Shown here one piece after another: positions 1 through 37,480 of a DNA stretch of 44,045 nucleotides. The notes below the pieces were generated by a model. It worked only from the letters and a program-made list of their open reading frames with translations. It searched no databases and had not been told where the DNA came from. Made by a program: the position numbers and the translations under genes. The stretch is from the NCBI GenBank assembly GCA_045863335.1, contig BTVY01000052.1:1-44045 (forward strand), read 5' to 3'. Numbering within the stretch: position 1 is the stretch's first letter; the number at the start of each line of letters is the position of its first letter. This DNA is from Candidatus Hydrogenedentota bacterium (GTDB lineage: Bacteria; Hydrogenedentota; Hydrogenedentia; Hydrogenedentales; SLHB01).

Positions 1-85
1 GCTTGGGAAAGCTACCCGAGCCCGAATTGGTGCACAGATTCTTGTGAGGAGCCTCATATATAAACTGTCCACATATAAACCCACA

Positions 86-1348
86 ATGCGGCATTTCCAA
101 TTGTTCACCGTTATGAGTCTCGCGTCGCTCTTGTCGGGCTGCTATTCACTCATGTTTGCCGCGTTCATTTGGGGCGGGATTCTGCTCATGATCCCCGTCA
201 TGATTCTCGCCATACCTGTCGTCCCGATTTATTACGCGGTCGAGGGCCGGCCCGGGAACACCGGCACGCAAACCGTCGCCTTCGCCCCGGATGGCGAATC
301 TCTGGTGGTCGCGTACAAGGACCGAAAGAAAATGCACCTATACCAGGTGCCTTTGGACGGCTCCGCGAGCACGCCATTGACCGAAGGCGATCGGTTCGAC
401 TTCGACCCGGCCTTCGCGCCCGGCGGCCGGTCCATCGTCTTCGCATCGCGCGTGGACAAGAAACAGTCGAACCTGTTCACCCTGGACCTGGCAACGAAAT
501 CGATCGCGCCCCTCACCTCCGGCGCGGTCGAGGATTGGGCGCCGCGGTTCTCCCCGAGCGGCGATGCCATCGTCTTCACCCGCCGGGACAGCAATACGAT
601 GGCTCATATCTGCCTTGTGAATGTCCCGGGCGGAGAGGTCCAGACTCTCACATCCGGCAACGAGTCTTACGACGTGGGTCCGGCCTTTCTTCCCGACGGC
701 AACACGGTGCTTTTCGCGCGCCTGAACGAAAAACCGGAATGGGGTCCCGACCACGACGCGGAATGGGACCGGAGAAGCCTCTATACGATTACCCGCACCG
801 GCGCCGATCTCACGCAGATCGCCGAAGCGCGCGAGGTCCAGGAGCATTGGGCGAAACGGGTGGCTGAAGAACGGCCCGTGGCCACGAGCTACGCCGGCAA
901 CCTGTTGCTCTGCGACCCGGACGCCGTTGATGTACTGCGCACTGGCGGCGTGGGCGAGATCGCTCTCGGCGCCTGGGTGGAAGAATTGGGCGCCTACACG
1001 AGCTGCGTGTTTTCTCCGGACGGGCAACGCGTCGCCTTCGCGGCCTGCAAGCGCAACGACGAGGAAGAAACCGTGTACACCTTGCGCGCCGCGGTCACGA
1101 CGGCCGAACGCACCGAAGCCATCGCCGAAATGCCGTGTCAGATCCGCGATCCGGTTTTCTCCCCCGACGGCGCCCGTTTGGTGTTTCGCGTGTTCGAGGA
1201 GCCCTATATGGAACGGGACCACTACGCGTTGTGGACGGTTCGATTCGACGGGACGGATCTACGCCGCCTTCCCGTCAGCGAGTACGATCGGAAGCAGATC
1301 GAGAAAGAAAGGCAAAACGCGGGGAGCGCGGCCAAGGACGCGGCGTGA
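86..1348 (+). CDS. TolB-like PD40/WD40 beta-propeller protein, possible lipoprotein
   Basis: Repeated 'P.FSPDG..IVF' PD40 motifs (DPAFAPGGRSIVF, APRFSPSGDAIVF, DPVFSPDGARLVF). N-terminal LLSGC lipobox-like motif followed by a hydrophobic segment. Start moved to ATG 86 (ORF track begins at 44). Confidence 0.8.
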   Translation: MRHFQLFTVMSLASLLSGCYSLMFAAFIWGGILLMIPVMILAIPVVPIYYAVEGRPGNTGTQTVAFAPDGESLVVAYKDRKKMHLYQVPLDGSASTPLTEGDRFDFDPAFAPGGRSIVFASRVDKKQSNLFTLDLATKSIAPLTSGAVEDWAPRFSPSGDAIVFTRRDSNTMAHICLVNVPGGEVQTLTSGNESYDVGPAFLPDGNTVLFARLNEKPEWGPDHDAEWDRRSLYTITRTGADLTQIAEAREVQEHWAKRVAEERPVATSYAGNLLLCDPDAVDVLRTGGVGEIALGAWVEELGAYTSCVFSPDGQRVAFAACKRNDEEETVYTLRAAVTTAERTEAIAEMPCQIRDPVFSPDGARLVFRVFEEPYMERDHYALWTVRFDGTDLRRLPVSEYDRKQIEKERQNAGSAAKDAA

Positions 1349-1402
1349 CAAAGTCCGCCGCAGCAATGAGGAATCCCGGGGGCGGACAGTAGAATCCGTC
1401 AG

Positions 1403-3685
1403 TTACTCTCCGTCTTCCGCGTCCACGGGTGCTTCGCCCTCCTCTTCTTCGGGTTGAAGGGCTTGGCACAGCATCATGGGCGCGAGGACGACGTCGCTGC
1501 TGAATCCGACATACCACAACTGGAGCGCGCCGTCTTCGTTCGCGGATAAGGCCAGGTTTCCGTCTCCGTTAAGCGCGATGGGTGCCCGGCCGGCGAAAGT
1601 GTGCAGGCAGCGGTTTGCGGCCATCTGCCAGAGGCGCATCTTGTTCCCGCGCACAGCAGAGAGGGCGAAAGCGCCGCGTTTACCCATGGCGATGGACGTG
1701 ACTGGCTCGCTATGGGCGTTGCGCCGGCCCATCTTCTGGGCCGCAACGATGTCATAGAGTTCGATGCACCCGTCCGCGGTACCGGCCAGCAGATACCGGC
1801 GATGGTCGCTCACGTCCATCGACAGGAACGGCGCGGGATACCCGGCTTCGAGGTGCAGGCAGCGGCCGGTGCGAAGTTCCCATTGGCACAAGGTTCCGTC
1901 TTGCCCGGCCGAGAAGAACGATTGACCGGACACCCCGGGGCAGATTGCATTGACCGGACCATCGTGCCCCGCAAAGGTGGTGTGATGCTTTCCCGTGGCG
2001 AGGTTCCACAAGCCGATGGTCCCGTCGGCGCTGGCCGTCAGGAGCCCCTGTCCGTCGTCCGTGAATTGGACTGCGGTAACGGCGTTGGTGTGACCCTTGA
2101 GGGCTCTGACGCATTCGCCCGTCGCCAAGTTCCAGACCCGGGCGGTTCGATCGAGCGATCCACTGACGACATGCAAGCCGTCCGCCGCCATCGCGAGTGA
2201 GGAGACGGCGGCGGCATGGCCTTCGAAGACCTGCACGCGGTCGCCGGTTTCCACCCGCCAGACGGAAATGGGTCCGCCCTGTTTCGGCGTATCGGCCGAC
2301 AGGGCGAGTTGAGCGTCCCAGCTCAGGCATACGGCGGCAATGTCACCTTCGTGGTCTCCAAATGTCTTAAGCGAACGGCGCGTTTCGTCCAGCCTTCGCT
2401 CGGCTTCGTCCGCAGCCGTGCGCACTTCGTGGCCGTCGATACGTTTGGCGGTGAGTCTGCCGAGCAGTTCTTTTGCTGTGGCGTAGTCGCCCCGCTCCAT
2501 CTGAACCTGGGCGAGCATGTACACCGCAGTCCACGATTTGGGGTTTTTGCGCCACAGGCGCTTCACGGTCCGCACCACCGATTTGTCCGTCGTCGAACCG
2601 ATGCGCCAGGCGTGCACCATATAGTTGTAGGTCGTTTCCAAATGGCCCGGTTCGATACGCAGGGCCCGTTCCCAGGTCTGCTGGGCTTCCGCCTTCTTGC
2701 CCAGGTCGAGCAGGGAAATGGCGCGGTTGTTCAGGCGATCGGCGGAGGTCTCCTCCGCTTGCGGCGTATCGCGGAAGTACGGCTCCCGGATCTCATGGGC
2801 GTATGTCGCGAGCAACGACTCGATGACGTCGCCCATGCCAGGAGGGCGGTCGGCGGGATTCTCCTCAAAACACCAGCGCAGCAGATCGACCAGTTTTGGG
2901 GGCATTTCCGGAATGGCGTCGTGTTCGGGGCCCAGTACGAGGTATTGCTCGAGCGCCTGCCCCGCCGATTGGCCCGCCATCCAGGTCACATCGCCGACGA
3001 ACATCTCCAGCACCGAAACAGCCCAGCTCCAGGTGTCGGTCGCGAAGGTCAGTTTGCGGCGATGGGCCTGCTCTGGCGAACAATAGGCTGGGGTCCCCCG
3101 CGATCCGATGCCGCGAGGGGCGCGAACGCCACCCTCCCCTTCGCTGGATGCCAGCGTCATGGCGCGAGACAGACCAAAGTCCGTCACCTTCGCGACGCCG
3201 TCCTTCGTCATCAGCACGTTCAGCGGCTTCACGTCCTGGTGCAGCAAATTCTGCGCGTGGGCGTAGCGCAACCCCCATGCAAACTGCAAGGCCACGTCCA
3301 GCATGCGCTTCAATACCACGTCACCGCGGTACAGCAAACGCTTGTAGATCCAGGTGGTTAACGTGCCGCCGTCGACGTATTCGGCGAACACGTTGGGAAT
3401 CCCATCGATGCGGCGGACGTAATAGCAGCTCGCAATATTGGGATGGAGTCCAAGATTCACCCAGGTCTCGCATTCCTGCTCGAACAGCCTGGCGCCTTTT
3501 TCGCTGGCGATTACTTCCGGCTTTGGCCGTTTTACCGCGAGGTCGAGATCCCAACCCCGGTGATGGACCAAATAGACGTGACCCATCCCGCCCCGGGCAA
3601 TGAGGCGTCGTACCTCATATACACCCAGTAGGATCTGGCCTTCGTGCCACTCCTGTGCCGCAACGGATGCTGTCGGTTTCGCCAT
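1403..3685 (-). CDS. Hanks-type Ser/Thr protein kinase with TPR and C-terminal WD40 repeats
   Basis: GGMGHVY, LAVK, HQDVKPLN, DFG and GTPAYCSPEQ kinase motifs; TPR-like helices; GH...WD/WN repeats. ATG 3685 is preceded by GGGGAG. Confidence 0.9.
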   Translation of the reverse strand: MAKPTASVAAQEWHEGQILLGVYEVRRLIARGGMGHVYLVHHRGWDLDLAVKRPKPEVIASEKGARLFEQECETWVNLGLHPNIASCYYVRRIDGIPNVFAEYVDGGTLTTWIYKRLLYRGDVVLKRMLDVALQFAWGLRYAHAQNLLHQDVKPLNVLMTKDGVAKVTDFGLSRAMTLASSEGEGGVRAPRGIGSRGTPAYCSPEQAHRRKLTFATDTWSWAVSVLEMFVGDVTWMAGQSAGQALEQYLVLGPEHDAIPEMPPKLVDLLRWCFEENPADRPPGMGDVIESLLATYAHEIREPYFRDTPQAEETSADRLNNRAISLLDLGKKAEAQQTWERALRIEPGHLETTYNYMVHAWRIGSTTDKSVVRTVKRLWRKNPKSWTAVYMLAQVQMERGDYATAKELLGRLTAKRIDGHEVRTAADEAERRLDETRRSLKTFGDHEGDIAAVCLSWDAQLALSADTPKQGGPISVWRVETGDRVQVFEGHAAAVSSLAMAADGLHVVSGSLDRTARVWNLATGECVRALKGHTNAVTAVQFTDDGQGLLTASADGTIGLWNLATGKHHTTFAGHDGPVNAICPGVSGQSFFSAGQDGTLCQWELRTGRCLHLEAGYPAPFLSMDVSDHRRYLLAGTADGCIELYDIVAAQKMGRRNAHSEPVTSIAMGKRGAFALSAVRGNKMRLWQMAANRCLHTFAGRAPIALNGDGNLALSANEDGALQLWYVGFSSDVVLAPMMLCQALQPEEEEGEAPVDAEDGE

Positions 3686-12260: not shown

Positions 12261-12289
12261 TTGACAATGTCCGGAATTCGCCGTAAACT
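12261..12289 (+). promoter_or_regulatory. sigma70-type promoter of furA-katG (likely leaderless transcript)
   Basis: TTGACA (12261-66), 17-bp spacer, TAAACT (12284-89); ATG follows 7 nt after the -10 with no SD sequence. Confidence 0.7.
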
Positions 12290-12296
12290 TTTCTCC

Positions 12297-12731
12297 ATGA
12301 TTGACCCAGCACAACTCCTCCGCGAACGCGGCCTTCAAGTCACGGCCCAACGCCTGGCCGTGCTGCGGGCCGTCTCCGCCAAACCACATGCCACTGCAGA
12401 CGAGATTGCTGAGGAGGTGCGCGCTATTATCGGCGCCATATCCCGGCAGGCGGTGTACGACGCCCTCGCGATCCTTGTCGATACGGGTCTGCTTCGGCGC
12501 ATTCAGCCCGCCCGGTCACCGGCCCTCTATGAGGATCGGGTCGACGACAACCATCACCACATCATTTGCCGCATCTGCGGAAAGACGACCGACGTCGATT
12601 GCGCCGTAGGCGAGAGACCTTGCCTGATCGCCGCCGACGACCAGGGATATGAGATTGACGAGGCCGAGGTGATCTTCTGGGGCAAGTGTCCGGAATGCCG
12701 TAAGGGGTCCTCTGTCTTGGAGACGAACTGA
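12297..12731 (+). CDS. furA: Fur-family peroxide-responsive regulator (FurA/PerR/CatR type)
   Basis: [27 protein letters not shown] and [10 protein letters not shown] motifs; directly upstream of katG. Confidence 0.88.
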
Positions 12732-12777
12732 ATCGGTGTGTATCAGTTCGTGTTTGAACCGCGTTTATGGATGTTGA

Positions 12778-15156
<2,379 letters not shown>

Positions 15157-20016: not shown

Positions 20017-20050
20017 TATGGATAGAGGATGCAATCGAGCGAGGTGGTGC

Positions 20051-20467
20051 GTGTTACCCAAGACATCAGAGTACGCTTTGCGGGCTGTGGTGTGGTTGGC
20101 CCGCGAACCGGGGCGAAAGGCTTCGGCCGACCTCCTGGCCGAGCACACGAAGGTACCACGCCGTTATTTGCACAAGGTCTTACAGGACTTGGTGGGCGGC
20201 GGCCTCGTGTGGTCCCAGCCTGGTCCCGGCGGCGGCTACGCGTTGGCGCGACAACCTGAGGATGTCACGATCCTCGACGTGGTCAATTCCGTGGCGCCCT
20301 TGGAGCGTATCCGCAGTTGCCCGCTTGGGCTTCCATCGCACACGACACTCTGCCCTCTCCACAGCGAATTGGACCGGGTCTACGCCGCGGCGGAACGTGC
20401 GCTGGGGCGCGTGACGATTGCAGAGTTGCTCCGTTCGGCAAGCCCAGTCGTTCCGTTGTGCGGGTGA
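20051..20467 (+). CDS. Rrf2 family transcriptional regulator
   Basis: EYALRA, YL.KVL..L, S..G.GGGY.LA and DVV..V motifs; Cys/His set CPLG...H..LCPLH; GTG start after GAGGTG. Confidence 0.92.
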   Translation: MLPKTSEYALRAVVWLAREPGRKASADLLAEHTKVPRRYLHKVLQDLVGGGLVWSQPGPGGGYALARQPEDVTILDVVNSVAPLERIRSCPLGLPSHTTLCPLHSELDRVYAAAERALGRVTIAELLRSASPVVPLCG

Positions 20468-20504
20468 CGTAGCTTCAACGCCAGTTGAAAAAAGGAGAAT
20501 CCCG

Positions 20505-21236
20505 ATGAGCACGATTTCCGTTCAAGACATAGTGGGAGAGATTATCGCACAGCGCCCCATGCTTGCACATGTGTTTGAAGCGGCCGGCGTGGACTACTGC
20601 TGCGGCGGCAAAAAGACGCTGGAGGTGGCATGCCGGGAAAAGGGCCTTGATCCGCAGGCGTTCGCCGACAAGCTGGTGCGGTCAGAGGCGGCGTCCGAGG
20701 GGGAGCCGCTGGCGGATGCGGCGGCTATGTCGCTCACGGAGTTGGCCGACCACATCGAACACACGCACCATGCTTACCTCCGCTCGGAGTTGCCTCGGCT
20801 TGACGCGCTCACGGAGAAAGTGGCCTCCGTGCATGGAGGGGAAGACGCTCGCCTGCACGACGTTCGCAAGACCTTGCTTTCTCTGGCCGCCGAAATGACC
20901 AGCCACATGATGAAGGAAGAACAAATCCTGTTTCCCATGATACGCCGTCTGGAAATGAGCGATGCGCTTCCGAAGTTTCACTGCGGCTCGATCGCCAATC
21001 CGATCCGGCAGATGGAGATGGAGCATAACGATGCCGGCTCGGCGCTCGAACGAATGCGCGCGCTGACTGATGAATATACTCCGCCTGACTGGGCCTGTAA
21101 TACATACCGTGTGATGCTTGACGCGTTGGCCCGCCTCGAGCTCGACATGCATCAGCACGTTCACAAAGAAGACAACGTGCTGTTCCCGAGCGCCTTCAAG
21201 CTCGAAGCCGGACTTGCCGAAAGGGCAAAGGCGTGA
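20505..21236 (+). CDS. ric: Iron-sulfur cluster repair di-iron protein (Ric/YtfE/ScdA)
   Basis: DYCCGG, HH.YL..ELP, HM.KEE.ILFP, ME.EH and H.HVHKEDNVLFP motifs; AAGGAG RBS. Confidence 0.95.
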   Translation: MSTISVQDIVGEIIAQRPMLAHVFEAAGVDYCCGGKKTLEVACREKGLDPQAFADKLVRSEAASEGEPLADAAAMSLTELADHIEHTHHAYLRSELPRLDALTEKVASVHGGEDARLHDVRKTLLSLAAEMTSHMMKEEQILFPMIRRLEMSDALPKFHCGSIANPIRQMEMEHNDAGSALERMRALTDEYTPPDWACNTYRVMLDALARLELDMHQHVHKEDNVLFPSAFKLEAGLAERAKA

Positions 21237-21865
21237 TGGCCGTGCACGTGGGCGGCAAGCCGCTGGCGGATTTCAGCGCACCCATCGAGATGATGAAAGA
21301 TTGCCACCGGCGGATCGAGCATTTTCTCGAAGTATTGCAGGCGGCCGAACGGCGATTCGGCGGAAGCAATCTTGACGAGGAAGGACGCCACGCATTGGAT
21401 GCCTCGCTGAACTACTTCGCGAACTTCGCGCCGCGCCATACAGCTGACGAGGAGCAGTCGCTATTCCCACGGATGCGAAGTTCCGGCGACTTGGACGCAC
21501 GAGCGGTCTTAGCCGATCTGGAGCGCCTGGCAAACGACCATCGCGGTTGCGAGGCGCTCCATGCGCACGTTCACGGCGTAGTGAGCAATTGGCTCGGAAC
21601 GGGTCGGCTGGACGCCACTCAACGGAGTGGGCTTCGGGCGGCGCTTGATGAACTGATAAGAATCTATGCGGCCCACATTCAGCTTGAGGAAGGCCACGTT
21701 TTTGTGGTTGCAGATCGCATACTAAGGGCCGAGCAGATTCAGGAAATCGGCGAGGAAATGAGAGAGCGGCGATCGCTCGCGGGCCTGGGGCACACAGGCG
21801 TGAGCTTGTTCGAGAAGGAGAGGCTGCAGCCCGAGAGACCCTCGCGGCATGGAGTCGGGCGATGA
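21233..21865 (+). CDS. Hemerythrin-domain protein
   Basis: CHRRIE, RHTADEE.SLFP, DH and HI.LEE motifs; GTGA overlap with ric. Confidence 0.85.
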   Translation: MMAVHVGGKPLADFSAPIEMMKDCHRRIEHFLEVLQAAERRFGGSNLDEEGRHALDASLNYFANFAPRHTADEEQSLFPRMRSSGDLDARAVLADLERLANDHRGCEALHAHVHGVVSNWLGTGRLDATQRSGLRAALDELIRIYAAHIQLEEGHVFVVADRILRAEQIQEIGEEMRERRSLAGLGHTGVSLFEKERLQPERPSRHGVGR

Positions 21866-22224
21866 GCAAGTCACTGCACCTTCGCGTGAAGCAAATCTAT
21901 GAACCTCCGTCAAATCAAGACGGACTTCGAATCCTGGTGGATAGGCTGTGGCCGCGAGGGCTCAAGAAAGAGACCTGCAGACTCGACAGCTGGCTGAAAG
22001 ACATTGCGCCCAGCAATACACTGCGCCGCTGGTTTGGGCATGACCCGGCCCGTTGGGACGAGTTTCAACAGCGCTACTTCGAGGAACTAGATGAGAGACC
22101 GGACATCTGGCAGGCCGTCATGGAGCTGGCGCGGGGGAAAACCGTCACGCTTCTCTATGCGGCTCACGATTCCCAGCACAATAATGCTGTAGCCCTGAAG
22201 AATTATCTTCAACGCGTCCGCTAA
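21862..22224 (+). CDS. DUF488 (YeaO-like) protein
   Basis: DG.RILVDRLWPRGL.KE, W.K.IAPS..LR.WFGHDP and HNNAVALK motifs. Confidence 0.9.
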   Translation: MSKSLHLRVKQIYEPPSNQDGLRILVDRLWPRGLKKETCRLDSWLKDIAPSNTLRRWFGHDPARWDEFQQRYFEELDERPDIWQAVMELARGKTVTLLYAAHDSQHNNAVALKNYLQRVR

Positions 22225-26163: not shown

Positions 26164-26345
26164 GCGACGCCAAGTGTCAATATCTTCCGGGGCAAGAGTG
26201 GCCGTACCTGACCAGTTTCCTCGATAGCTTCCGCCTCACGTCTTGCGGCCTTTGTTACAACCAGCACGGTTTCGTGCTCGTGTTCAAGTATGTCCGCTGC
26301 TCTCATAACGTAGTCTCCTGGATCTCGTGGACCTCAAGCCACCGT

Positions 26346-27008
26346 CTAGTGCTGGTGGACTTTGATGGCTTTCGCTGCCGGGGCCTCTGCGTGTTCATTG
26401 GCTTCGGACTCATGCCCGTGCGCAGCCGCTCCGGACATCACCTCGTGAAGATGCTCAACATAGTGGATGTACTCCACGTAGGCCTCGACATACTCCCGGC
26501 CCGCCGCCACGCTCTCATCCTTGTGTTTCTTGGCTTCGACCGTCCGTTCAAAACGCTCGCGCACGCTCGATTCGAGCTCCGCCTGCAACGCCCCGACAAG
26601 TGAGGTGTCCGATTCCGCCTCGAGCGCTTTCTCCGCTGCCTCGATTCCGGGTTCGATCGGTGTATCCGCGGGCTTCAATCCCGTGTACGGAGCGCCTTCG
26701 CCCGCACGGTGTACGCGAACAAGTGTCTCAAAGAAATGCATGTCCACAAGCTCCTGCACGTCATTGCCTTTCTGACGTGCCTGAACAGTCTTGTCAAATA
26801 GGGAGCGGATCTCCTCTTCGTCGTCAGGCCTGATCCATTTTAGGACAGGGTCCAGGTCCTGGGTTTCAATGGCCTTCTGAGCGTCCGTGACTACAGGGCC
26901 GGACAGTGTGTCACAGTGCGCCCACGCCCCCGAAGGGAAAACGATCCCCAAGCCTGCGAGCATCAGGCCAATCGCTGTCAACCCACTAACCGTTGTCTTT
27001 ATGTTCAT
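26346..27008 (-). CDS. Secreted DUF6448-like protein (mature N-terminus HCDT..GPVV)
   Basis: Signal peptide ending AWA; HCDTLSGPVV, FFETLVRVHRAGEGAPYTGLKP and GREYVEAYVEYIHYVE motifs; AGGAG RBS. Confidence 0.75.
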   Translation of the reverse strand: MNIKTTVSGLTAIGLMLAGLGIVFPSGAWAHCDTLSGPVVTDAQKAIETQDLDPVLKWIRPDDEEEIRSLFDKTVQARQKGNDVQELVDMHFFETLVRVHRAGEGAPYTGLKPADTPIEPGIEAAEKALEAESDTSLVGALQAELESSVRERFERTVEAKKHKDESVAAGREYVEAYVEYIHYVEHLHEVMSGAAAHGHESEANEHAEAPAAKAIKVHQH

Positions 27009-27116
27009 GCCAGTTCTCCTTTGTTGCAGGTGCCGGCTTTTCGGCCTCGGGCGCCTTTCCGTTGCCGTTTCCAATCGCTTCGCTGAAGAGCCCCCAGGCC
27101 TTTTCGGCCTGACGGG

Positions 27117-27145
27117 TTGACAAAGGGTAGATATTGGGGTAAAAT
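27117..27145 (+). promoter_or_regulatory. sigma70-type promoter of the tetR-rnk gene
   Basis: TTGACA (27117-22), 17-bp spacer, TAAAAT (27140-45). Confidence 0.8.
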
Positions 27146-27178
27146 GAACGTATATTCAATAATGAATGGCAGTTCATT
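27143..27178. promoter_or_regulatory. Two adjacent palindromic operators (AATGAA-N6-TTCA(A/T)T), likely TetR sites
   Basis: AATGAA-CGTATA-TTCAAT (27143-60) and AATGAA-TGGCAG-TTCATT (27161-78) overlap the -10 and transcription start region. Confidence 0.7.
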
Positions 27179-27199
27179 TTCGTGGAGGTATGAAAAATA

Positions 27200-28264
27200 A
27201 TGTCCGGTCAAGAGGTCAAGGCGGAGGCCAAGAAACGACGACAGCCCGCGGACGGTGCGATTCTTGATGCTGCCGAACATGTGTTCGGATGGAAGGGATA
27301 TCAGCAGACGACTATGGAAGCTATAGCTCGCGAGGCGGGAATTTCGGTAGGAACGCTGTACAACCTCTTCAAGAGCAAGGAAGACATTTACGGGCAAGTC
27401 TGTCAACGAGTCGGCGAGTCTGTTGTCCGCCGTATTGAGCCTTTAGCTCGTGCCAGTGATCCTGAGGCGGCGGTTCTAGACGTTATTCGGCTTCGTTTGT
27501 GCAACTACGTGAATGACCGTCTGTTCTTTCAGCCGTTCTGTATTCCAGCCTACTTGGGTGTGCAGCCGGAGCCCGCGCGTCTTGGACCCGAGGTCAACCG
27601 GCTCTATCAGCAGTACGTGGATCTTGTCGAACAGATCTTCGGACGATGTCTCGTAAAGGCTGGGCAGACGGAGACTCCTGGAATAAAGATGGCGGTCTGT
27701 CTCGAAGGCATGCTGACTGCCTTTATGGGTTATTGGTCAGAACCGTTACAGTCGGACAATCTCGCCAAGGTCGCGCGGCACATGAAGACCGTGCTGCTTC
27801 GCGGGATAGCGCCTGCGGTCGACCAACCTGAGAGCGATACGGTAGCGGAGTCTCGTGCTATTTACATCAGCCGCTACGACCTGGAACGCCTGAGGGAGCT
27901 AATCGAGGTAGTGCGTGCCTTCGGCAAAGAGGAGAATCATAAATACGCCGACATCTTGGACGATGAGCTGAAACATGCCCGCGTCACGAGTCCGCGAGAG
28001 GTGCCGCCGGATGTAGTAACCATGAACTCCAAAGTGCGAATCGCAAACCCCAATACGGGCACCGACCGAGTCCATACCCTAGTATTTCCGCGGAACGCCG
28101 ATTCAGCGCCCGAGAACATCTCCATCCTAAGTCCACTTGGAACCGCGGTTTTCGGCCGCCGATTGGGTGATGTCTTTACAGTGGGCGCGGGGGAGAATGC
28201 CCCGATGTATGAGATAACCCAGATGCTTTATCAGCCGGAGGCATCTGGTGATTACCATTTGTAA
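27200..28264 (+). CDS. TetR-family regulator fused to a C-terminal Rnk (GreA/GreB-family) domain
   Basis: ILDAAE.VF..KGY..TTM..IA.EAGIS.GTLY..FKSKE (TetR HTH); IYIS..D..RL, VPPDVVTMNS, LVFP, ISILSPLGTA..G and YQPEASG (Rnk); GGAGG RBS. Confidence 0.88.
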   Translation: MSGQEVKAEAKKRRQPADGAILDAAEHVFGWKGYQQTTMEAIAREAGISVGTLYNLFKSKEDIYGQVCQRVGESVVRRIEPLARASDPEAAVLDVIRLRLCNYVNDRLFFQPFCIPAYLGVQPEPARLGPEVNRLYQQYVDLVEQIFGRCLVKAGQTETPGIKMAVCLEGMLTAFMGYWSEPLQSDNLAKVARHMKTVLLRGIAPAVDQPESDTVAESRAIYISRYDLERLRELIEVVRAFGKEENHKYADILDDELKHARVTSPREVPPDVVTMNSKVRIANPNTGTDRVHTLVFPRNADSAPENISILSPLGTAVFGRRLGDVFTVGAGENAPMYEITQMLYQPEASGDYHL

Positions 28265-28307
28265 ATGTCGGCAAATCATTCTGCGAAGAGGTCAAAGGAT
28301 CAGTCCC

Positions 28308-28727
28308 ATGGAAAAGCATATCTTCATTACGGCACTGGATAGACATCGTATCTTGGACTGTCTATCAATTCTTTCGGAGTTTCCCGACAAACGAGACCTG
28401 CCCTATATTCAATACCTTGAAAAAGAGGTCAAGCGCGCCCAAGTCGTTCTTGACCCAGTTGAAATGCCCGCCGACGTCATCACGATGCGTTCCAGCGCCA
28501 GGCTGAGAGACATGACGAGCGGAGCGCTATTGGATTGCACTTTGGTGTACCCCTCGGAACGTGACCCGGAAAAAGGTCTTATTTCGATACTCGCTCCCCT
28601 AGGCGCGGCGATGATCGGGTATAAAGCCGGGGATTCCTTCGAGGCGGATTTGCCCAAAGGGCGGACGCAATTTCTGATCGAGGCAATAACGTATCAGCCG
28701 GAATCGGCAGGCGAAACGTACCTCTAA
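28308..28727 (+). CDS. rnk: Rnk-like GreA/GreB family factor
   Basis: IFIT.LD..R, P.DVITM.S, TLVYP, ISILAPLG.AMIG and YQPE.AG motifs. Confidence 0.85.
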   Translation: MEKHIFITALDRHRILDCLSILSEFPDKRDLPYIQYLEKEVKRAQVVLDPVEMPADVITMRSSARLRDMTSGALLDCTLVYPSERDPEKGLISILAPLGAAMIGYKAGDSFEADLPKGRTQFLIEAITYQPESAGETYL

Positions 28728-29015
28728 ATGCATGCTCATGCGAGCACCTATTCCCGCTGCGAAACAAACGTTCACCACGCTCGAAGAAGCCGTTCGACGT
28801 TGGGAGAAACTAAGCCCGGCTGCTTACGACGTTGATGTATCTGTTTGTGGCGGTTCGCGGCGCAGTTGGCAAGACTCGATGACTACCCGCAAATGTCTAC
28901 GAGGCGGCGCGGAGGGTTTCTTGAGGAGACGCACGGGTTGCGGTGCGCATCAATTAGGAAGTTTACGAACAAGGTTCACGATGTCGGTACTGGTGGTGCA
29001 AAGAGGAGCTACGAC

Positions 29016-30107
29016 ATGACTACGATCGGAAATGCCAACATAACCCGCAGGCGATCCTGGGGAATTGACGCTCCCAGCGAAACAGCGTCCCGATGGGCAA
29101 TCGTCTTGGCCGGGGGAAATGGGAGCCGGATGCGCCCGTTTATCGAGAACTGGCTTGGCGAACCCCGCCCAAAACAATACTGTACATTCGTGGGGACCCG
29201 CTCGATGCTGAAACACACCGTGGACCGTGCGGCCGAACTAGTACCACCTAAGCAAATCATCACGATCATAGGTAAAGGACACCGTTCCTTTCTTGAGACC
29301 GAGCACACTCCTCTGCCGGGGAAGGTCATTGAACAACCCAAGGATTGTGGGACGGCGGTAGGGATCTTCGTCCCACTCAGTTACATCATGGCAGAAGACC
29401 CGGAAGCTACAGTCTTGGTGCTGCCCTCAGACCACTTCGTCTTTCCGGAAGGAGCATTCCTCAGCCACGCCTTGGGCGGGTGCATGCTGGCTCGGGCTCA
29501 CGAGGATAGCCTAATTTTGTTCGGAGCGCTTGCAACCCGTCCAGAGACAGATTACGGATGGATTCTACCTTCGAGTTCAAAGAGAACGATCGTCACCGGT
29601 GGTGCACTGTGGACGACGCGCACCGTGAAGCGTTTCCACGAGAAACCCGGGCATGACGAAGCCACTGAATTACTTGCCAAGGGCTATTTGTGGAACACAA
29701 TGATTGTCGCCGGCACAGCGAAAACATTCTGGAGACTCGGCTGGCAACTGCTCCCCCAGATGATGGAGCGTATTCACAACCTGCGGCAGGTGCTTCGAGG
29801 CGTCGGCTCCGGGGGTGTGACTTCCCGGCAGGAAGCCGCTGCACTTCATGACGTGTTTGTTGGAATGCGATCGTATGACTTTTCGCGAGACCTACTGCAG
29901 CGGGCGGCCGGGTGGACCAAGTCAGTCACCATGGATGGAGTCGAGTGGTGCGATTGGGGCCGTCCGGAACGCGTCGCGGCTACACTGAAGCAACTCGAAT
30001 TACGTCCGGCATTCCCGCCTCAAATGGCGAACTCAATCGGGCAAGATCCGGAAGAATTCAGGATTCCACAGTGGACTTCGCACAACAGTCTTGCGCAGAG
30101 GACATAG
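29016..30107 (+). CDS. Mannose-1-phosphate guanylyltransferase-like sugar-phosphate nucleotidyltransferase
   Basis: LAGG.GSR, RPKQ, PSDH, YGWI, F.EKP, WNT and W.DWG motifs; no isomerase cupin domain; GAGGAG RBS. Confidence 0.85.
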   Translation: MTTIGNANITRRRSWGIDAPSETASRWAIVLAGGNGSRMRPFIENWLGEPRPKQYCTFVGTRSMLKHTVDRAAELVPPKQIITIIGKGHRSFLETEHTPLPGKVIEQPKDCGTAVGIFVPLSYIMAEDPEATVLVLPSDHFVFPEGAFLSHALGGCMLARAHEDSLILFGALATRPETDYGWILPSSSKRTIVTGGALWTTRTVKRFHEKPGHDEATELLAKGYLWNTMIVAGTAKTFWRLGWQLLPQMMERIHNLRQVLRGVGSGGVTSRQEAAALHDVFVGMRSYDFSRDLLQRAAGWTKSVTMDGVEWCDWGRPERVAATLKQLELRPAFPPQMANSIGQDPEEFRIPQWTSHNSLAQRT

Positions 30108-30341
30108 CCGTATGGCAACGGCAACCATTACCGTTATGCAGGCTAGACTGCGTGCATCGATCCGCCTTTCCGAGCTCTTTTCGATTTCCCAGAATCCAGT
30201 GTGGAAGGAGCGAAGGATGAGCCGAGAGTCTGGAATCCCTTGCTAACTATCTGATTTCGGCCACCTATTGTGCCGGACTATTCGGTAGTTATGGGCGTCT
30301 CTCGTAGCCAATCGGGTCGTCCAACCGAGAGGAGTTCTCGT

Positions 30342-30761
30342 ATGAGCGAAAAAGAGGCCGTTATAAGTGAATTCGATCGGGCGCGGCTGCAAGTGGTGAT
30401 CGATACGATTAGGGCGCAAAGCGGCACACGTCAGTGGTCGAGGGGGGACAAACTTCAGGAGAAACTGACCACTTCGACGACACTGGCCCCATCGGAAATC
30501 CCTGCAGATGTGATCACAATGAACTCGATCGCGCGCGTTCGCGACCTCGAGTCACAGAAAGAGGGGGTCTACAACCTTGTTTTTCCCTCGGACAGCAAGC
30601 CTCTGGAGGGACGAGCGTCCGTGCTTTCCCTTCTTGGTATTGCGCTATTCGGTTCTCGCATTGGCGACGTGATCGAATGGAACACCACGAAGGCGCGCAG
30701 GTCGTTGGAAGTTGTGGAAATCATCTATCAGCCGGAAGCGGCAAGACATTGGACTCTGTGA
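30342..30761 (+). CDS. rnk: Rnk-like GreA/GreB family factor (third paralogue)
   Basis: IS..D..RL, IP.DVITMNS, LVFP, SVLS.LG.AL.G..IGD.IEW and YQPEA motifs; GAGGAG RBS. Confidence 0.82.
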   Translation: MSEKEAVISEFDRARLQVVIDTIRAQSGTRQWSRGDKLQEKLTTSTTLAPSEIPADVITMNSIARVRDLESQKEGVYNLVFPSDSKPLEGRASVLSLLGIALFGSRIGDVIEWNTTKARRSLEVVEIIYQPEAARHWTL

Positions 30762-31015
30762 ACGGAAATCCGAGATAACACGGCCAACGTCTATAGAACG
30801 TTCGAACGGAAAACAACCAGTCTCCATGAGACACTACAGGACGTCCCCGTCCGCGACCCACACAGCGCGCCTTCGCGGGAGAGGTAAATGGTTTCAAGTG
30901 GCTGCATATTCGATACAGGATGGCATAACACTAGTTATATGTATATAGAATATCTCCTTTCGGGGCAATGTAGATTCTATGGCGCCCCCGTCTATTCAAA
31001 GCATGGAAGGTCGTG

Positions 31016-31651
31016 ATGGAAACCAGCATTTTGCTAACGGGCGTTTTAGTGTTCTTTGCGCGAATTCTCGACGTCGCCCTGGGGACGCTTCGAACCATGA
31101 TGACCATTCAAGGCCGTACATTAATTTCATTCTCTTTGGGCTTCGTGGAGGTCATCATCTGGATTCTCGTAGTCAGTGCTGTCGTGAGTCAAATCAAAGA
31201 GTCACCGGCATTGATTCTGTTCTACGCGTTTGGTTTCGCCAGCGGGAATGTAGCCGGGATCTTGATCGAGGCAAAGCTAGCACTCGGAAACGTCGCACTG
31301 AAAGTGATCTCCATGAAGGAAGAAAACACCTTGGCCGACAAGCTACGAACGGCCGGTCAGCCGGTGACCGTCTTCGCGGGTATGGGAATGCATGGGCCCG
31401 TCCATCAGCTCTTTATGGTCTGCCGGCGGCGGGACGTAAACCGCCTGCTTGCGGTCGTCAAGACCGTCGATGCGAACGCTTTCGTTATCACGGAAATGGT
31501 CAAGGATGTCAATAAGCTTCTGAACCCGATCCGTAATCCTTTCGATTTCTTGCGATCGGATTCGAAAACAGACAGCGCAACCACGCTAATGACCGATCAG
31601 GTCCTGCCCGCTGGAATCCACGCGAGCGGAGATGACTGCGCGGACGAATGA
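31016..31651 (+). CDS. UPF0316 (DUF5698 + DUF2179) membrane protein
   Basis: FFARI.DV.LGTLR, GFVEV.IW, YAFGFA.GN..G, G.G..G and D.NAF motifs. Confidence 0.85.
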   Translation: METSILLTGVLVFFARILDVALGTLRTMMTIQGRTLISFSLGFVEVIIWILVVSAVVSQIKESPALILFYAFGFASGNVAGILIEAKLALGNVALKVISMKEENTLADKLRTAGQPVTVFAGMGMHGPVHQLFMVCRRRDVNRLLAVVKTVDANAFVITEMVKDVNKLLNPIRNPFDFLRSDSKTDSATTLMTDQVLPAGIHASGDDCADE

Positions 31652-34068: not shown

Positions 34069-34437
34069 CTATTTCACTTTTGCGGGTTTCTTCAGGTGAA
34101 CGTCCAGGTAGGCCTTCAAGGCAACCACGTTGTTGTGCTCGGTGTCGTGAGAACTAAACAGCAACGTCACGTCGTTCTTTTTAGCCGTTTCGATAATCGG
34201 TTGCCACGCTTCGACATGTTCGTCGAGTTCGGCTTGGTAGCGTTGCTGAAACTTCTCCCACTTGGACCCATCATGATTGAACCATTTCCGCAACTCGGTG
34301 CTGGGTGCGACATCTCTAATCCATCCGTCGATCTTGAGATTCTCCTTCTTTATGCCGCGCGGCCATAACCGTTCGACGAGAAAGCGAACGCCATCTGCCT
34401 TCGCCGGCGGATCGTAAACCCGTTTGATGTGGATCAT
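34069..34437 (-). CDS. DUF488 (YeaO-like) protein, second paralogue
   Basis: IKRVYDP....DG.R.LVERLWPRGI.KE, APS.ELRKWF.HD and HNNVVALK motifs; AAGGAG RBS. Confidence 0.9.
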   Translation of the reverse strand: MIHIKRVYDPPAKADGVRFLVERLWPRGIKKENLKIDGWIRDVAPSTELRKWFNHDGSKWEKFQQRYQAELDEHVEAWQPIIETAKKNDVTLLFSSHDTEHNNVVALKAYLDVHLKKPAKVK

Positions 34438-34465
34438 AATGTTCTCCTTCGATACACAGACCAAA

Positions 34466-37324
34466 TCAGCTTTGTACCTGCCTCTCAACGGGACATCCGG
34501 TGTCCTGCCCCTGGGCGAGTAGCTGTTCGAGCACATAGGGCAGGATTCCACCGGCGGAGAAGTAAGCGACTTCGATCGGCGTATCTATCCGCAGTAGCAG
34601 TGGCACTGACTCGCGCCAGCCGTCCTGGCGTTCTATGTGTAATTCCGCCTTCTGACGCGGGCGAAGAGATTCACCGATCGCAACATCGAATTGTTCGCTG
34701 CCGTCAAGTGCGAGGGTTTGTGCGCTCACGCCTTCCGGAAGCTGACAGGGAAGGACGCCCATCCCAATCAGATTCGACCGGTGAATTCGCTCAAATCCGC
34801 GCGCTATCACCGCGCGCACGCCGAGCAGCCGGGTACCCTTGGCTGCCCAGTCGCGTGAGCTGCCCGCTCCGTAGTCCTGCCCGGCAATCACGATCAAGGG
34901 CACACCCTCGGCGCGGTACCGCTCTGCGGCGTCGTACATGCCCATGCGCTCGCCGTCCGGCTGATGCAGGGTGACGCCGCCCTCAACGCCTGGTGCCATG
35001 AGGTTCCGAATGCGAACGTTGGCAAAGGTCCCGCGAACCATGATCTCGTGGTTGCCTCGACGCGCTCCGTAGCTATTGAAGTCCTGCGTCGAAATACCCC
35101 GATCGTGCAGGTAGTCGCCGGCTGAAGAGGTGGCGCCGATCGCGCCCGCCGGGCTGATGTGGTCCGTTGTGATCGAATCGCCGAAAATAGCCAGTGTCCG
35201 CGCTCCGGAGAATCCAGCGGCGGGGGCCGCCGCCATCGAACGATTGAAATACGGCGGCTCGCGGATATAGAGCGACTCAGGATCCCATTCGTAGAGGCGC
35301 CCCGTCCCTGCCGGAATTTCATTCCACAAAGGGTTCTGGCCGGCGAAACCGGCATATACGCGCCGGTAATCGCCAGGATCATACGCGGCTTCAAGGAGTG
35401 CATCGATTTCCTGCGCGGCCGGCCATATATCGCGCAGATACACTTCGCGTCCGTCGATGCTCACGAGCGGTTCGCGTGTGAGATCAATGTCAACTCGGCC
35501 GGCGATCGCGAACGCCACGACCAGCGGCGGGCTCATCAGGAAGTTCGCTTTTACACTCTGGTGAATGCGCGCTTCGAAATTGCGGTTTCCCGACAGCACG
35601 CTAGCGGCAATGATGTCGTTCTTCGTGACCGTTTCCTCGATTCGGTGATCGAGCGGTCCGGAGTTTCCGATGCACGTGGTGCAGCCGAATCCAACGACAT
35701 TGAACCCGAGCCGGTCGAGGAATGGCTGCAAGCCGGTTTTCGTAAGGTACTCGCTCACGGCGCGCGAACCGGGCGCGAGCGAGGTCTTCACCCACGGCTT
35801 GACGGTGAGTCCCTGCTCGACCGCTTTTTTCGCCAACAGCCCCGCGGCCAGCATCACCGCTGGATTTGAAGTGTTGGTACAGGAGGTGATGGCCGCGATC
35901 ACCACGTCGCCGTGCGTCAGGTTGGCCGCCGGGGGCCGCTCCGAAAGCCAGCCCGGCCGGTCGACACGGTTCGGCGTGGGCCGGTTATCCATCATCTCTA
36001 TCTCGGTCAGAGTATTGGTGTCTGTGACGCGTCCGTCCGGGACCGCGTCATCCGGCTGTTGGCCGCCACTGGGCCGTGGTTCCATTTCGTTCGCAAGTCG
36101 AACCTCCGTGCGGCGGGCGGCGTCCGGCTTGTCAAAGCCATCTTGGCTGGTCAGTAGCGCGAGGAATCGTTCCTTGAGTTGGCCGAGTAGGATCCGGTCC
36201 TGTGGGCGTTTGGGACCGGCTACCGATGGTTCGACCGAGGCGAGATCCACGTCGAGCACCGTCGAGTAGTCACAATCGCCTTGCGCGGGCATACCAAACA
36301 GCCCCTGTGCCTGGTAATAACGGCGTACCGTCTCTACGTGCTCGTCGCTGCGGCCAGTTGCCAGGAGATAGCGGCAAGTCTGTTCGTCTACCGGAAAGAA
36401 ACCGACCGTCGCGCCGTATTCGGGAGCCATGTTCCCGATAGTGGCGCGATCCGGCACCGAGAGGCTTGCGGCCCCTTCGCCGTAGTATTCGACAAATTTG
36501 CCGACCACGCGTGTCTGCCGTAAACGCTCCGTGACATACAGCACCAGGTCCGTGGCGGTCACCCCCTCACAAAGCCGGCCGTGGAGATGGACGCCCACGA
36601 CGTCCGGCAGGAGAAAATAGACGGGCTGGCCAAGCATTGCCGCCTCGGCCTCTATCCCGCCGACGCCCCAACCGAGGACCCCAAGGCCGTTGACCATGGG
36701 CGTGTGCGAGTCCGTGCCGACCAGAGTGTCGGGATACAATACGCCGTCCTTTTCGAGAACGCCGCGCGCGAGGAACTCGAGGTTCACCTGGTGGCAGATG
36801 CCAAATCCCGGCGGGACAATCCGCAATCCGTCAAAGGCCTGCGTTCCCCATTTGAGGAACCGGTACCGCTCGTTGTTTCGGTGAAACTCCATCTCCATGT
36901 TGAGGGCCAGGGCCTCGTTGCGACCGAAGTAGTCGACCTGCACGGAGTGATCGATGACGAGATCGACGGGAACCAAGGGCAGCACCCGTTCGACGTCAAG
37001 GCCCCGGCGCGCCACCTCCGCGCGCATCGCGGCGAGATCCACAAGAAGCGGGACTCCCGTGAAGTCCTGCAACAGCACGCGACCGACAACGAAGGGTACC
37101 TCGGCCGTCCGGGCGGCGCCGGGCTGCCACCGGACGAGCGCTTCGACGTCCCCATCAGAAATGCGTTGCCCGTCCCATCCGCGCAGTACGGATTCGAGGA
37201 GGATCCGGAGGCTTACCGGCAACCGCGAGATGTCCCCAACCCCGTTCTTCTCCAACTGGGGAAGCGAGTAGTATGTGGCGGAGGCTCCGGAGGGGAGTGA
37301 TAATCGTTGGCGCACATCGATCAT
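34466..37324 (-). CDS. acnA: Aconitate hydratase A
   Basis: [58 protein letters not shown] and [10 protein letters not shown] motifs; AAGGAAGG RBS. Confidence 0.96.
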
Positions 37325-37480
37325 GATTTCCTTCCTTTGCGGGACTACATTAAACAACCACAGCCCCGCTATCGGCTCCGTGACGCGGAACGTCCGGTTG
37401 GCGGATCTTGTGCGGCCTCTCGGCACGCACAGTCGACTGACACGGCTCGCAGCCGTCTCCAATCAAGTCGATGTTCGAGT

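Follow-up and report, generated by a model that had tools for sequence, protein, structure and literature searches.

What does a bacterium gain by fusing a sequence-specific transcriptional regulator to a protein of the kind that visits RNA polymerase's secondary channel? The question is raised by a gene in a 44,045-nucleotide stretch of DNA from a Candidatus Hydrogenedentota bacterium (contig BTVY01000052.1, positions 1 to 44,045; the whole stretch is referred to here as the window). A single open reading frame (ORF) of 354 residues in the window joins a TetR-type regulator to a module of the Rnk (regulator of nucleoside diphosphate kinase) family. An earlier note on this DNA, made from its letters alone, had suggested that such a protein could bring a polymerase-binding module to specific promoters under ligand control. 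We find that the architecture is conserved in many uncultured bacteria and apparently undescribed: a sequence-specific DNA binder joined to a secondary-channel-type factor. As to its function, we consider it fairly probable that the protein is a ligand-responsive, autorepressing TetR that controls a Rnk operon and carries its own Rnk module, which probably binds RNA polymerase.

A complete TetR regulator joined to a complete Rnk module

The fusion gene and the parts of its product are as follows.

27200..28264, + strand: TetR-Rnk fusion gene, ATG start, 354 residues plus stop
27184-27188, + strand: Shine-Dalgarno-like GGAGG, read from the sequence, 11 nucleotides upstream of the fusion ATG
27230..27802, + strand: TetR part, residues ~11-201 (Pfam, NCBIfam, AlphaFold2 model, and fold matches)
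27260-27394, + strand: helix-turn-helix (HTH) domain, TetR_N, residues 21-65 (Pfam)
27806..27850, + strand: linker, residues 203-217 (~15 residues), predicted to be disordered (predicted local distance difference test [pLDDT] of <50)
27854..28261, + strand: Rnk module, residues 219-354 (Pfam, match to PDB entry 3bmb, and fold match)

Pfam places TetR_N (PF00440) at residues 21-65 (59.9 bits against a cutoff of 24; E value, 2.1e-16), Rnk_N (PF14760) at residues 219-262 (31.7 bits; cutoff, 23.7), and the GreA_GreB C-terminal domain (PF01272) at residues 269-341 (57.1 bits; cutoff, 26.9). Among the NCBIfam models, a FadR-type TetR model covers residues 20-203 with its positions 7-188 of 190, and the Rnk model PRK05753 covers residues 218-353 with positions 4-136 of 137. 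Given this near-complete coverage, the TetR and Rnk halves are both full length, as the earlier note had read them. The AlphaFold2 model of the fusion, built on 66 homologs (mean pLDDT, 84.5), shows the same division. Nine helices span residues 11-201 (the first at 11-32, the last at 185-201), and the Rnk part consists of a helical hairpin (residues 225-241 and 244-258, with helices of 17 and 15 residues) followed by a beta-rich domain. In a comparison with PDB folds, the top match of the fusion was E. coli Rnk (3bmb_A; TMt, 0.83; 40% identity), with Nitrosomonas europaea 2pn0 next; the TetR regulators DarR, PfmR, and FadR ranked after the Rnk structures (TMt, 0.66-0.76). By sequence, the Rnk part aligns with residues 7-135 of the 136 residues of 3bmb (E value, 1.9e-21).

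Judged from its sequence, the protein is a member of the TetR family, with a TetR_N HTH domain, a nine-helix fold of ~200 residues, and palindromes at its own promoter. The fused module is likewise of the Rnk family, having a Rnk_N coiled coil and a GreA/GreB C-terminal domain and being alignable along the whole of E. coli Rnk. It is not a GreA/GreB cleavage factor: it is without the long coiled coil with acidic tip residues that such factors have N-terminally, and GreA_GreB_N (PF03449) was not detected in the fusion by Pfam.

Distribution and integrity of the fusion

The earlier note had proposed a search for the domain architecture and had reasoned that its idea would fall if homologs were always two separate genes, a stop codon having been lost here. 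Among 5.8 billion clustered proteins, ~88 clusters (90% identity; 333-383 residues) carry TetR_N together with GreA_GreB. The 65 of these that were aligned are 34-92% identical to the query, and the clusters with named sources are from Candidatus Hydrogenedentes. Members go by the name "TetR family transcriptional regulator" in some public records and by "GreA/GreB family elongation factor" in others. When 1.84 billion representatives were searched exhaustively with HMMER, ~28 full-length clusters (50% identity level) were retrieved. A six-frame search of 135 phylum genomes, taken as Hydrogenedentota by their record names, found 35 full-length, single-frame, stop-free copies in 33 genomes (6 of the 15 family codes) and one additional genome in which the fusion gene is interrupted by contig ends. 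Five distant copies, in genomes G135 to G139 outside the set of 135, are also each encoded in a single frame (362-374 residues). Homologs are thus not always two separate genes.

In the window itself, a DNA contig from run X1 spans 27117-30797 gap-free, and a contig of 1,295 bases from the X5 RNA library (27558-28852) crosses the TetR/Rnk junction and runs into the gene that follows.

Full-length copies at 35-41% identity, the five in G135 to G139 among them, were retrieved by a profile-guided scan of species genomes, from records titled "bacterium," Planctomycetaceae, Planctomycetota, Lentisphaeria, Lentisphaerae, or Omnitrophota. A spread of the fusion beyond Hydrogenedentota is probable rather than settled, because the titles of metagenome-assembled genomes are unreliable. 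Copies that are 69-80% identical to the query (L010, L012, and L013/L055) are titled "uncultured Nitrospiraceae bacterium" or "Candidatus Bathyarchaeia archaeon." By its coordinates, the Bathyarchaeia-titled record (69% identical copy) appears to be the same as contig G115:C80, which has the window's own family code, and both of these titles are probably wrong.

Two full-length members of 354 residues (P0142 and P0145) align to the profile in their N-terminal part, although TetR_N was undetected in them by Pfam at an E value of 0.001; from their sequences, the HTH of these proteins may be degenerate.

No TetR-Rnk or TetR-GreA/GreB fusion is described in the full-text literature searched, whose coverage leaves out most subscription journals; the earlier note, too, had not recognized the architecture as characterized. 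A Protein Atlas search returned plain TetR clusters only, with scores of <0.9.

Promoter and operators

Upstream of the fusion gene lie a promoter and two palindromes.

27117..27145, + strand: sigma-70-type promoter, with -35 TTGACA at 27117-27122, a 17-nucleotide spacer, and -10 TAAAAT at 27140-27145 (promoter scan)
27145..27158, unstranded: candidate operator O1, TGAACGTATATTCA, of the form TGAA-N6-TTCA, with predicted binding
27161..27178, unstranded: candidate operator O2, AATGAATGGCAGTTCATT, with arms AATGAA/TTCATT and the core TGAATGGCAGTTCA at 27163-27176

The promoter agrees with the consensus at 11 of its 12 positions; among the 4 promoter-like sites in 26300-31600 (shuffled sequences gave a mean of 2.5), it ranks first. 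The earlier note had described a near-consensus promoter overlapped by two palindromes. The promoter and both palindromes are present as described, but the overlap holds for one of them: only O1 touches a hexamer, its first base being the last base of the -10 element, and O1 also spans the predicted transcription start. O2 lies downstream, 18 bp from O1 center to center, at ~+11 to +24 if transcription starts, as predicted, ~7 nucleotides past the -10 element.

The palindromes recur upstream of homologous fusion genes. At least one TGA-N8-TCA is found within ~135 nucleotides of the HTH in 31/31 homologous upstream regions and in 11/11 additional ones, including loci titled with other phyla; the estimate for chance, made from a G+C content of 60%, is ~0.02 such sites per 135 nucleotides. 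Two strict sites 18-19 bp apart are present in 26 of the 42 regions (21/31 and 5/11), some of which come from the same or near-identical genomes (related genomes and possible duplicates), and in six more of the 31 the second site is replaced by AGAA-N6-TTCA. TTGACN-17-TAnnAT precedes in most homologous regions, and the first site begins at the last -10 base. On the protein side, the recognition helix is near invariant in the 65 aligned clusters (S49, V50, G51, Y54, N55, F57, and K60), which fits the conserved half-site. The palindromes are, on this comparative evidence, footprinted operators conserved across homologs.

Within the 6.75-Mb genome, the paired arrangement is confined to the fusion. 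TGAA-N6-TTCA occurs 85 times, and a relaxed double-site pattern has 19 matches on both strands; TGA and TCA are found in both units only at two fusion loci, that of the window and a paralogous one on contig C16 (L008:4240-6539). The C16 locus encodes a fusion of 357 residues, 81% identical to that of the window, followed by Rnk A and Rnk B genes. It has the same promoter and operators, including AATGAA-N6-TTCATT, amid upstream bases that otherwise differ.

Elsewhere, TGAA-N6-TTCA stands singly in a promoter context at C14:49292, C8:41226, C40:10931, and C94:370; the genes that follow are a 63-codon ORF, a DinB-like gene, a further TetR gene, and LexA. We did not accept these four as regulon members. 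At C14:49250-49530, a near-consensus promoter (TTGACA-17-TAAAAT) is directly followed by TGAATAGATATTCA and the 63-codon ORF; this site may be one more target of the fusion, or the target of a different TetR.

In the X1 contig, ~758 extra letters lie between 26900-27117 and the sequence from 27117 onward, and the break coincides exactly with the upstream edge of the -35 element. The promoter-operator-operon unit therefore has another left neighbor there.

The fusion gene heads a cluster of Rnk genes

Three genes follow the fusion on the same strand.

28308..28727, + strand: standalone Rnk paralog A, 139 residues, 44 nucleotides past the fusion stop (Pfam and NCBIfam)
28845..30107 (predicted start), + strand: nucleotidyl-transferase gene with a mannose-1-phosphate guanylyltransferase-like N-terminal domain, between Rnk A and Rnk B
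30342..30761, + strand: standalone Rnk paralog B, 139 residues (Pfam and NCBIfam)

The X5 contig (27558-28852) bridges the fusion gene and Rnk A. Gaps in RNA-library coverage (e.g., 27107-27134 in X5) carry no evidential weight. A same-strand standalone Rnk gene lies directly 3' of the fusion in 31 of 42 evaluable loci, including all five in G135 to G139. The nucleotidyl-transferase gene is found at the equivalent place in G095 (L049:6507-7562) and is absent from the C16 locus.

The genome encodes seven GreA/GreB C-terminal domains: a canonical GreA on contig C31, three in the window, and three at C16. The C31 GreA holds the only GreA_GreB_N (PF03449) match of the genome, whose Rnk modules, those in the window and at C16, number six; one DksA/TraR-type zinc-finger protein is encoded as well.

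One origin and strong constraint for the fused Rnk module

In a tree of 171 Rnk modules, a single clade holds 73 fused Rnk domains (66 from alignment A1 and 7 from records titled with other phyla) and 2 standalone ones (P0143 and P0152). The neighboring standalone Rnk paralogs are placed outside this clade; Rnk B falls in another clade, made up of 12 adjacent paralogs (Shimodaira-Hasegawa-like approximate likelihood ratio test [SH-aLRT], 100). The fused Rnk domains have a single origin as far as the SH-aLRT support of 99 for their clade, the one measure of it, indicates.

Both halves of the protein carry conserved features. Family-wide positions, defined as those at least 70% conserved in 96 nonfused modules, were counted as retained where the same residue occurs in at least 85% of the 75 modules of the fused clade; 26 of 26 were retained. 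The Rnk half is also more conserved than the TetR half in the distant copies (e.g., 48% versus 33% in L057). The Rnk half is, by these comparisons, under strong purifying selection. Among the 65 aligned clusters, core motifs of the TetR ligand domain are conserved as well, for example, D106-F113 and W179.

A proposed ligand-responsive autorepressor of a Rnk operon

The reading that we favor combines these features into one autoregulated circuit. TetR dimers would bind the two TGAA-N6-TTCA operators, one over the -10 element and start site and the other at ~+11 to +24, and would thereby shut off the strong sigma-70-type promoter of the fusion gene itself. This promoter would drive an operon that also encodes the standalone Rnk paralogs. 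On entry of a small ligand into the TetR pocket, the repressor would leave the DNA, and all three Rnk modules would become more abundant. The fused Rnk module, like E. coli Rnk, would dock at the rim of RNA polymerase's secondary channel with its coiled coil ending short of the active site, so that the fusion would couple a DNA- and ligand-sensing module to a polymerase-binding module.

For the TetR half, autorepression relieved by a ligand would be the simplest reading, given the operator layout and what is known of the family. The layout is that of ordinary steric repression by an autorepressor. For the Rnk half, we hold with moderate confidence that the module binds RNA polymerase. According to the passages on Rnk in a 2015 review (PMC4598747), the E. 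coli protein binds RNA polymerase and is a competitor of Gre and DksA, its coiled coil does not extend as far as the active center, and its function is unknown. A 2021 review (PMC8632087), in its mention of Rnk, also gives the function as still unknown, noting that Rnk is upregulated in anoxic growth arrest of Pseudomonas aeruginosa and is otherwise uncharacterized. A complex prediction that paired residues 215-354 of the fusion, with alignment A1, with a 229-residue beta-prime fragment of the same genome (rim helices to bridge helix) returned a score of 0.00 and a mark of 0.32, which count neither for nor against binding.

Several observations weigh against this reading or limit it. Polymerase binding by the fused module is drawn from its 40% identity to the polymerase-binding E. 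coli Rnk. The fusion scores 100.9 bits against PRK05753, under the equivalog cutoff of 109, and is for this reason termed Rnk type and not an equivalog of E. coli Rnk; the standalone neighbors Rnk A and Rnk B are below the cutoff as well (97.7 and 89.1 bits). E233, V237, F241, and G242, located where the first helix ends and at the hairpin tip, are conserved in the fused clade only, and with a coiled-coil tip of its own the module may have changed its partner. For ligand control, identity to solved TetR structures of the DarR/FadR type is weak (19-24%). The operon part of the reading is not universal, since 11 of the 42 loci are without an adjacent Rnk gene. The 42 loci are not independent observations, some of them sharing the same or near-identical genomes, and counts over them overstate independence. 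Finally, the transcription start from which the operator positions are reckoned is a predicted one; X1, X5, and the other runs are available as contigs, from which starts and levels cannot be read.

Alternatives to the autorepressor circuit

The suggestion of the earlier note is that the fusion is a promoter-tethered secondary-channel factor, in which an operator-bound TetR half places Rnk beside polymerase at specific promoters under ligand control. Rnk would then plug the secondary channel, so that polymerase is kept poised or GreA and DksA are locally excluded. The secondary-channel factors described in parts of the 2015 review (PMC4598747) are all free proteins that reach polymerase from solution, and a DNA-tethered one, if real, would be a new mode of transcription control. 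The flexible 15-residue linker would permit the necessary reach, and O2, at ~+11 to +24, would lie close to where a promoter-bound polymerase ends downstream. Throughout one clade the two halves have stayed joined, the Rnk half is more constrained than the TetR half, and the genome encodes both GreA and a DksA/TraR-type protein as possible competitors. However, O1 covers the -10 element and start site, so that a filled operator should keep polymerase away rather than retain it. The strict double operator is found at no other promoter in the genome, and the single sites before the LexA, TetR, and DinB-like genes and the 63-codon ORF include none established as a target. The position of the operators and the restriction of the strict pair to the fusion loci argue against a broad role in delivery to promoters, while action at the fusion's own promoter is compatible with them. 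We regard a tethered factor of this kind as unlikely.

A variant that we hold to be similarly doubtful is that the fusion reads RNA polymerase. Rnk would dock on polymerases with an unoccupied secondary channel, and the docking would change how far the TetR half occupies its operators. Conceivably, either the repressor would come off the DNA by titration or polymerase would be trapped by a plug tethered at ~+11 to +24. If this were true, the protein would be the first sequence-specific DNA-binding factor to act via the secondary channel, and Rnk would have its first physiological role, as a homeostat of secondary-channel occupancy.

The specific form in which the fusion is a polymerase-titrated feedback sensor seems improbable to us. 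Polymerases with a free channel would bind Rnk and draw the repressor off its operators, so that the supply of Rnk matches the amount of unoccupied polymerase. This would explain why a regulator carries its own Rnk module. It also agrees with the conservation of autoregulation together with the fusion, with the cotranscribed standalone Rnk genes (31/42 loci), and with the expansion of Rnk modules to six in the genome. The idea is purely inferential, however, and across a flexible linker polymerase binding need not block DNA binding. Moreover, the TetR ligand domain is complete and its core motifs (D106-F113 and W179) are conserved, which suggests a conventional small-molecule signal.

Less probable again is that the fused Rnk module serves as a protein-protein interface for the neighboring Rnk paralogs, which would act as corepressors or antirepressors, and does not bind polymerase. 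A standalone Rnk gene comes next in those same 31 loci, tandem Rnk-Rnk proteins exist (P0149, P0183, and P0089), and the coiled-coil tip has conserved residues peculiar to the fused clade. Against this stand the 11 loci without a neighboring Rnk gene and the varied descent of the neighbors, whose clade (A type, B type, or another) changes with the lineage. The retention of all family-wide residues argues for the common function of the family.

We also considered that the circuit merely coregulates Rnk modules; even if coupling goes no further than this, the fusion would still be a neat case of a regulator that carries its own cargo in fused form. An ancestry as split genes next to Rnk was rejected: the three nearest standalone TetR homologs in the search of the phylum (33-34% identity; G115, G114, and G081) adjoin VWA, SIMPL, or enolase-type genes, and Rnk genes were not found beside these three. 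An artifact (lost stop codon, frameshift, or assembly chimera) can be dismissed with near certainty, given single-frame copies in 33 genomes, ~88 clusters, and both a gap-free DNA contig and an RNA-library contig across the junction.

Comparison with known systems

E. coli Rnk (3bmb) and N. europaea 2pn0 share with the fusion the whole module, a short two-helix coiled coil followed by a GreA/GreB-type C-terminal domain. In contrast to E. coli Rnk, the module here forms the C-terminal third of a TetR regulator, has conserved tip residues of its own (F241 and G242), and shares an operon with one or two further Rnk paralogs. In a study of 2008, Rnk reportedly bound RNA polymerase in competition with Gre factors and DksA. 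The natural and conserved joining of Rnk to an autoregulated, sequence-specific DNA binder offers a new handle on Rnk function. With a defined promoter and operators and cotranscribed Rnk paralogs, it becomes testable whether Rnk acts at promoters, whether it acts in pairs, and which signal is involved.

TetR repressors such as FadR (YsiA), DarR, and AcrR resemble the fusion in their TetR_N HTH, nine-helix fold, size of ~200 residues, and palindromes at their own promoters, and the pair of neighboring sites is reminiscent of dimer-of-dimers binding, to which the title of PDB entry 8svd refers. Unlike these repressors, the fusion has a 150-residue extension from an RNA polymerase-binding family.

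GreA/GreB and Gfh1 have in common with it the C-terminal domain of PF01272, with a weak sequence match for Gfh1 (E value, 1e-4), but the fusion is without GreA_GreB_N. Its hairpin helices, of 17 and 15 residues, are about half the length of the Gre coiled coil, which puts the active site beyond the reach of the tip.

Rnk is also found in other architectures: GNAT acetyltransferase-Rnk, Zn-ribbon-Rnk, tandem Rnk-Rnk, a 215-residue N-terminal domain with a DDGCCFW motif joined to Rnk, and Rnk with a C-terminal hydrophobic stretch that is possibly a membrane anchor. Members with these architectures are P0095 to P0098, P0207, P0215, P0247, P0093, P0094, P0149, P0183, and P0089, of which the tandem proteins P0149, P0183, and P0089 have two GreA_GreB stretches each. 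As in TetR-Rnk, the partner in these fusions is a second module that could sense or localize. None, however, has a recognized sequence-specific DNA-binding domain, and they are related to TetR-Rnk in the Rnk part only (profile match positions 205-360).

CarD-type factors likewise join a polymerase-interacting and a DNA-binding module in one polypeptide. Their fold is unrelated, they contact the beta subunit lobe and not the secondary channel, and they bind DNA without sequence specificity.

Other observations in and around the locus

A tandem arrangement occurs in L027 (G083:C2; positions 67-3032), where two fusion genes, 57% and 71% identical to the query, are followed by one Rnk A-type gene. 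Upstream of the first copy, TGA-N8-TCA sites are found at other spacings.

The gene upstream of the window's fusion (26346-27074, - strand) is divergent; its product is a DUF6448 protein that has a hydrophobic segment at the N terminus. It seemingly lies outside the module, because the C16 fusion has a long same-strand gene upstream instead.

Elsewhere in the window, stress-type genes occupy 12261-15153 and 20018-22221. They include a Fur-family regulator beside a two-domain peroxidase (catalase-peroxidase-like) and an Rrf2 regulator, after which come genes for ScdA/hemerythrin and hemerythrin. DUF488 genes are located at 21862-22221 and 34072-34551, and an aconitase gene is located at 34469-37462.

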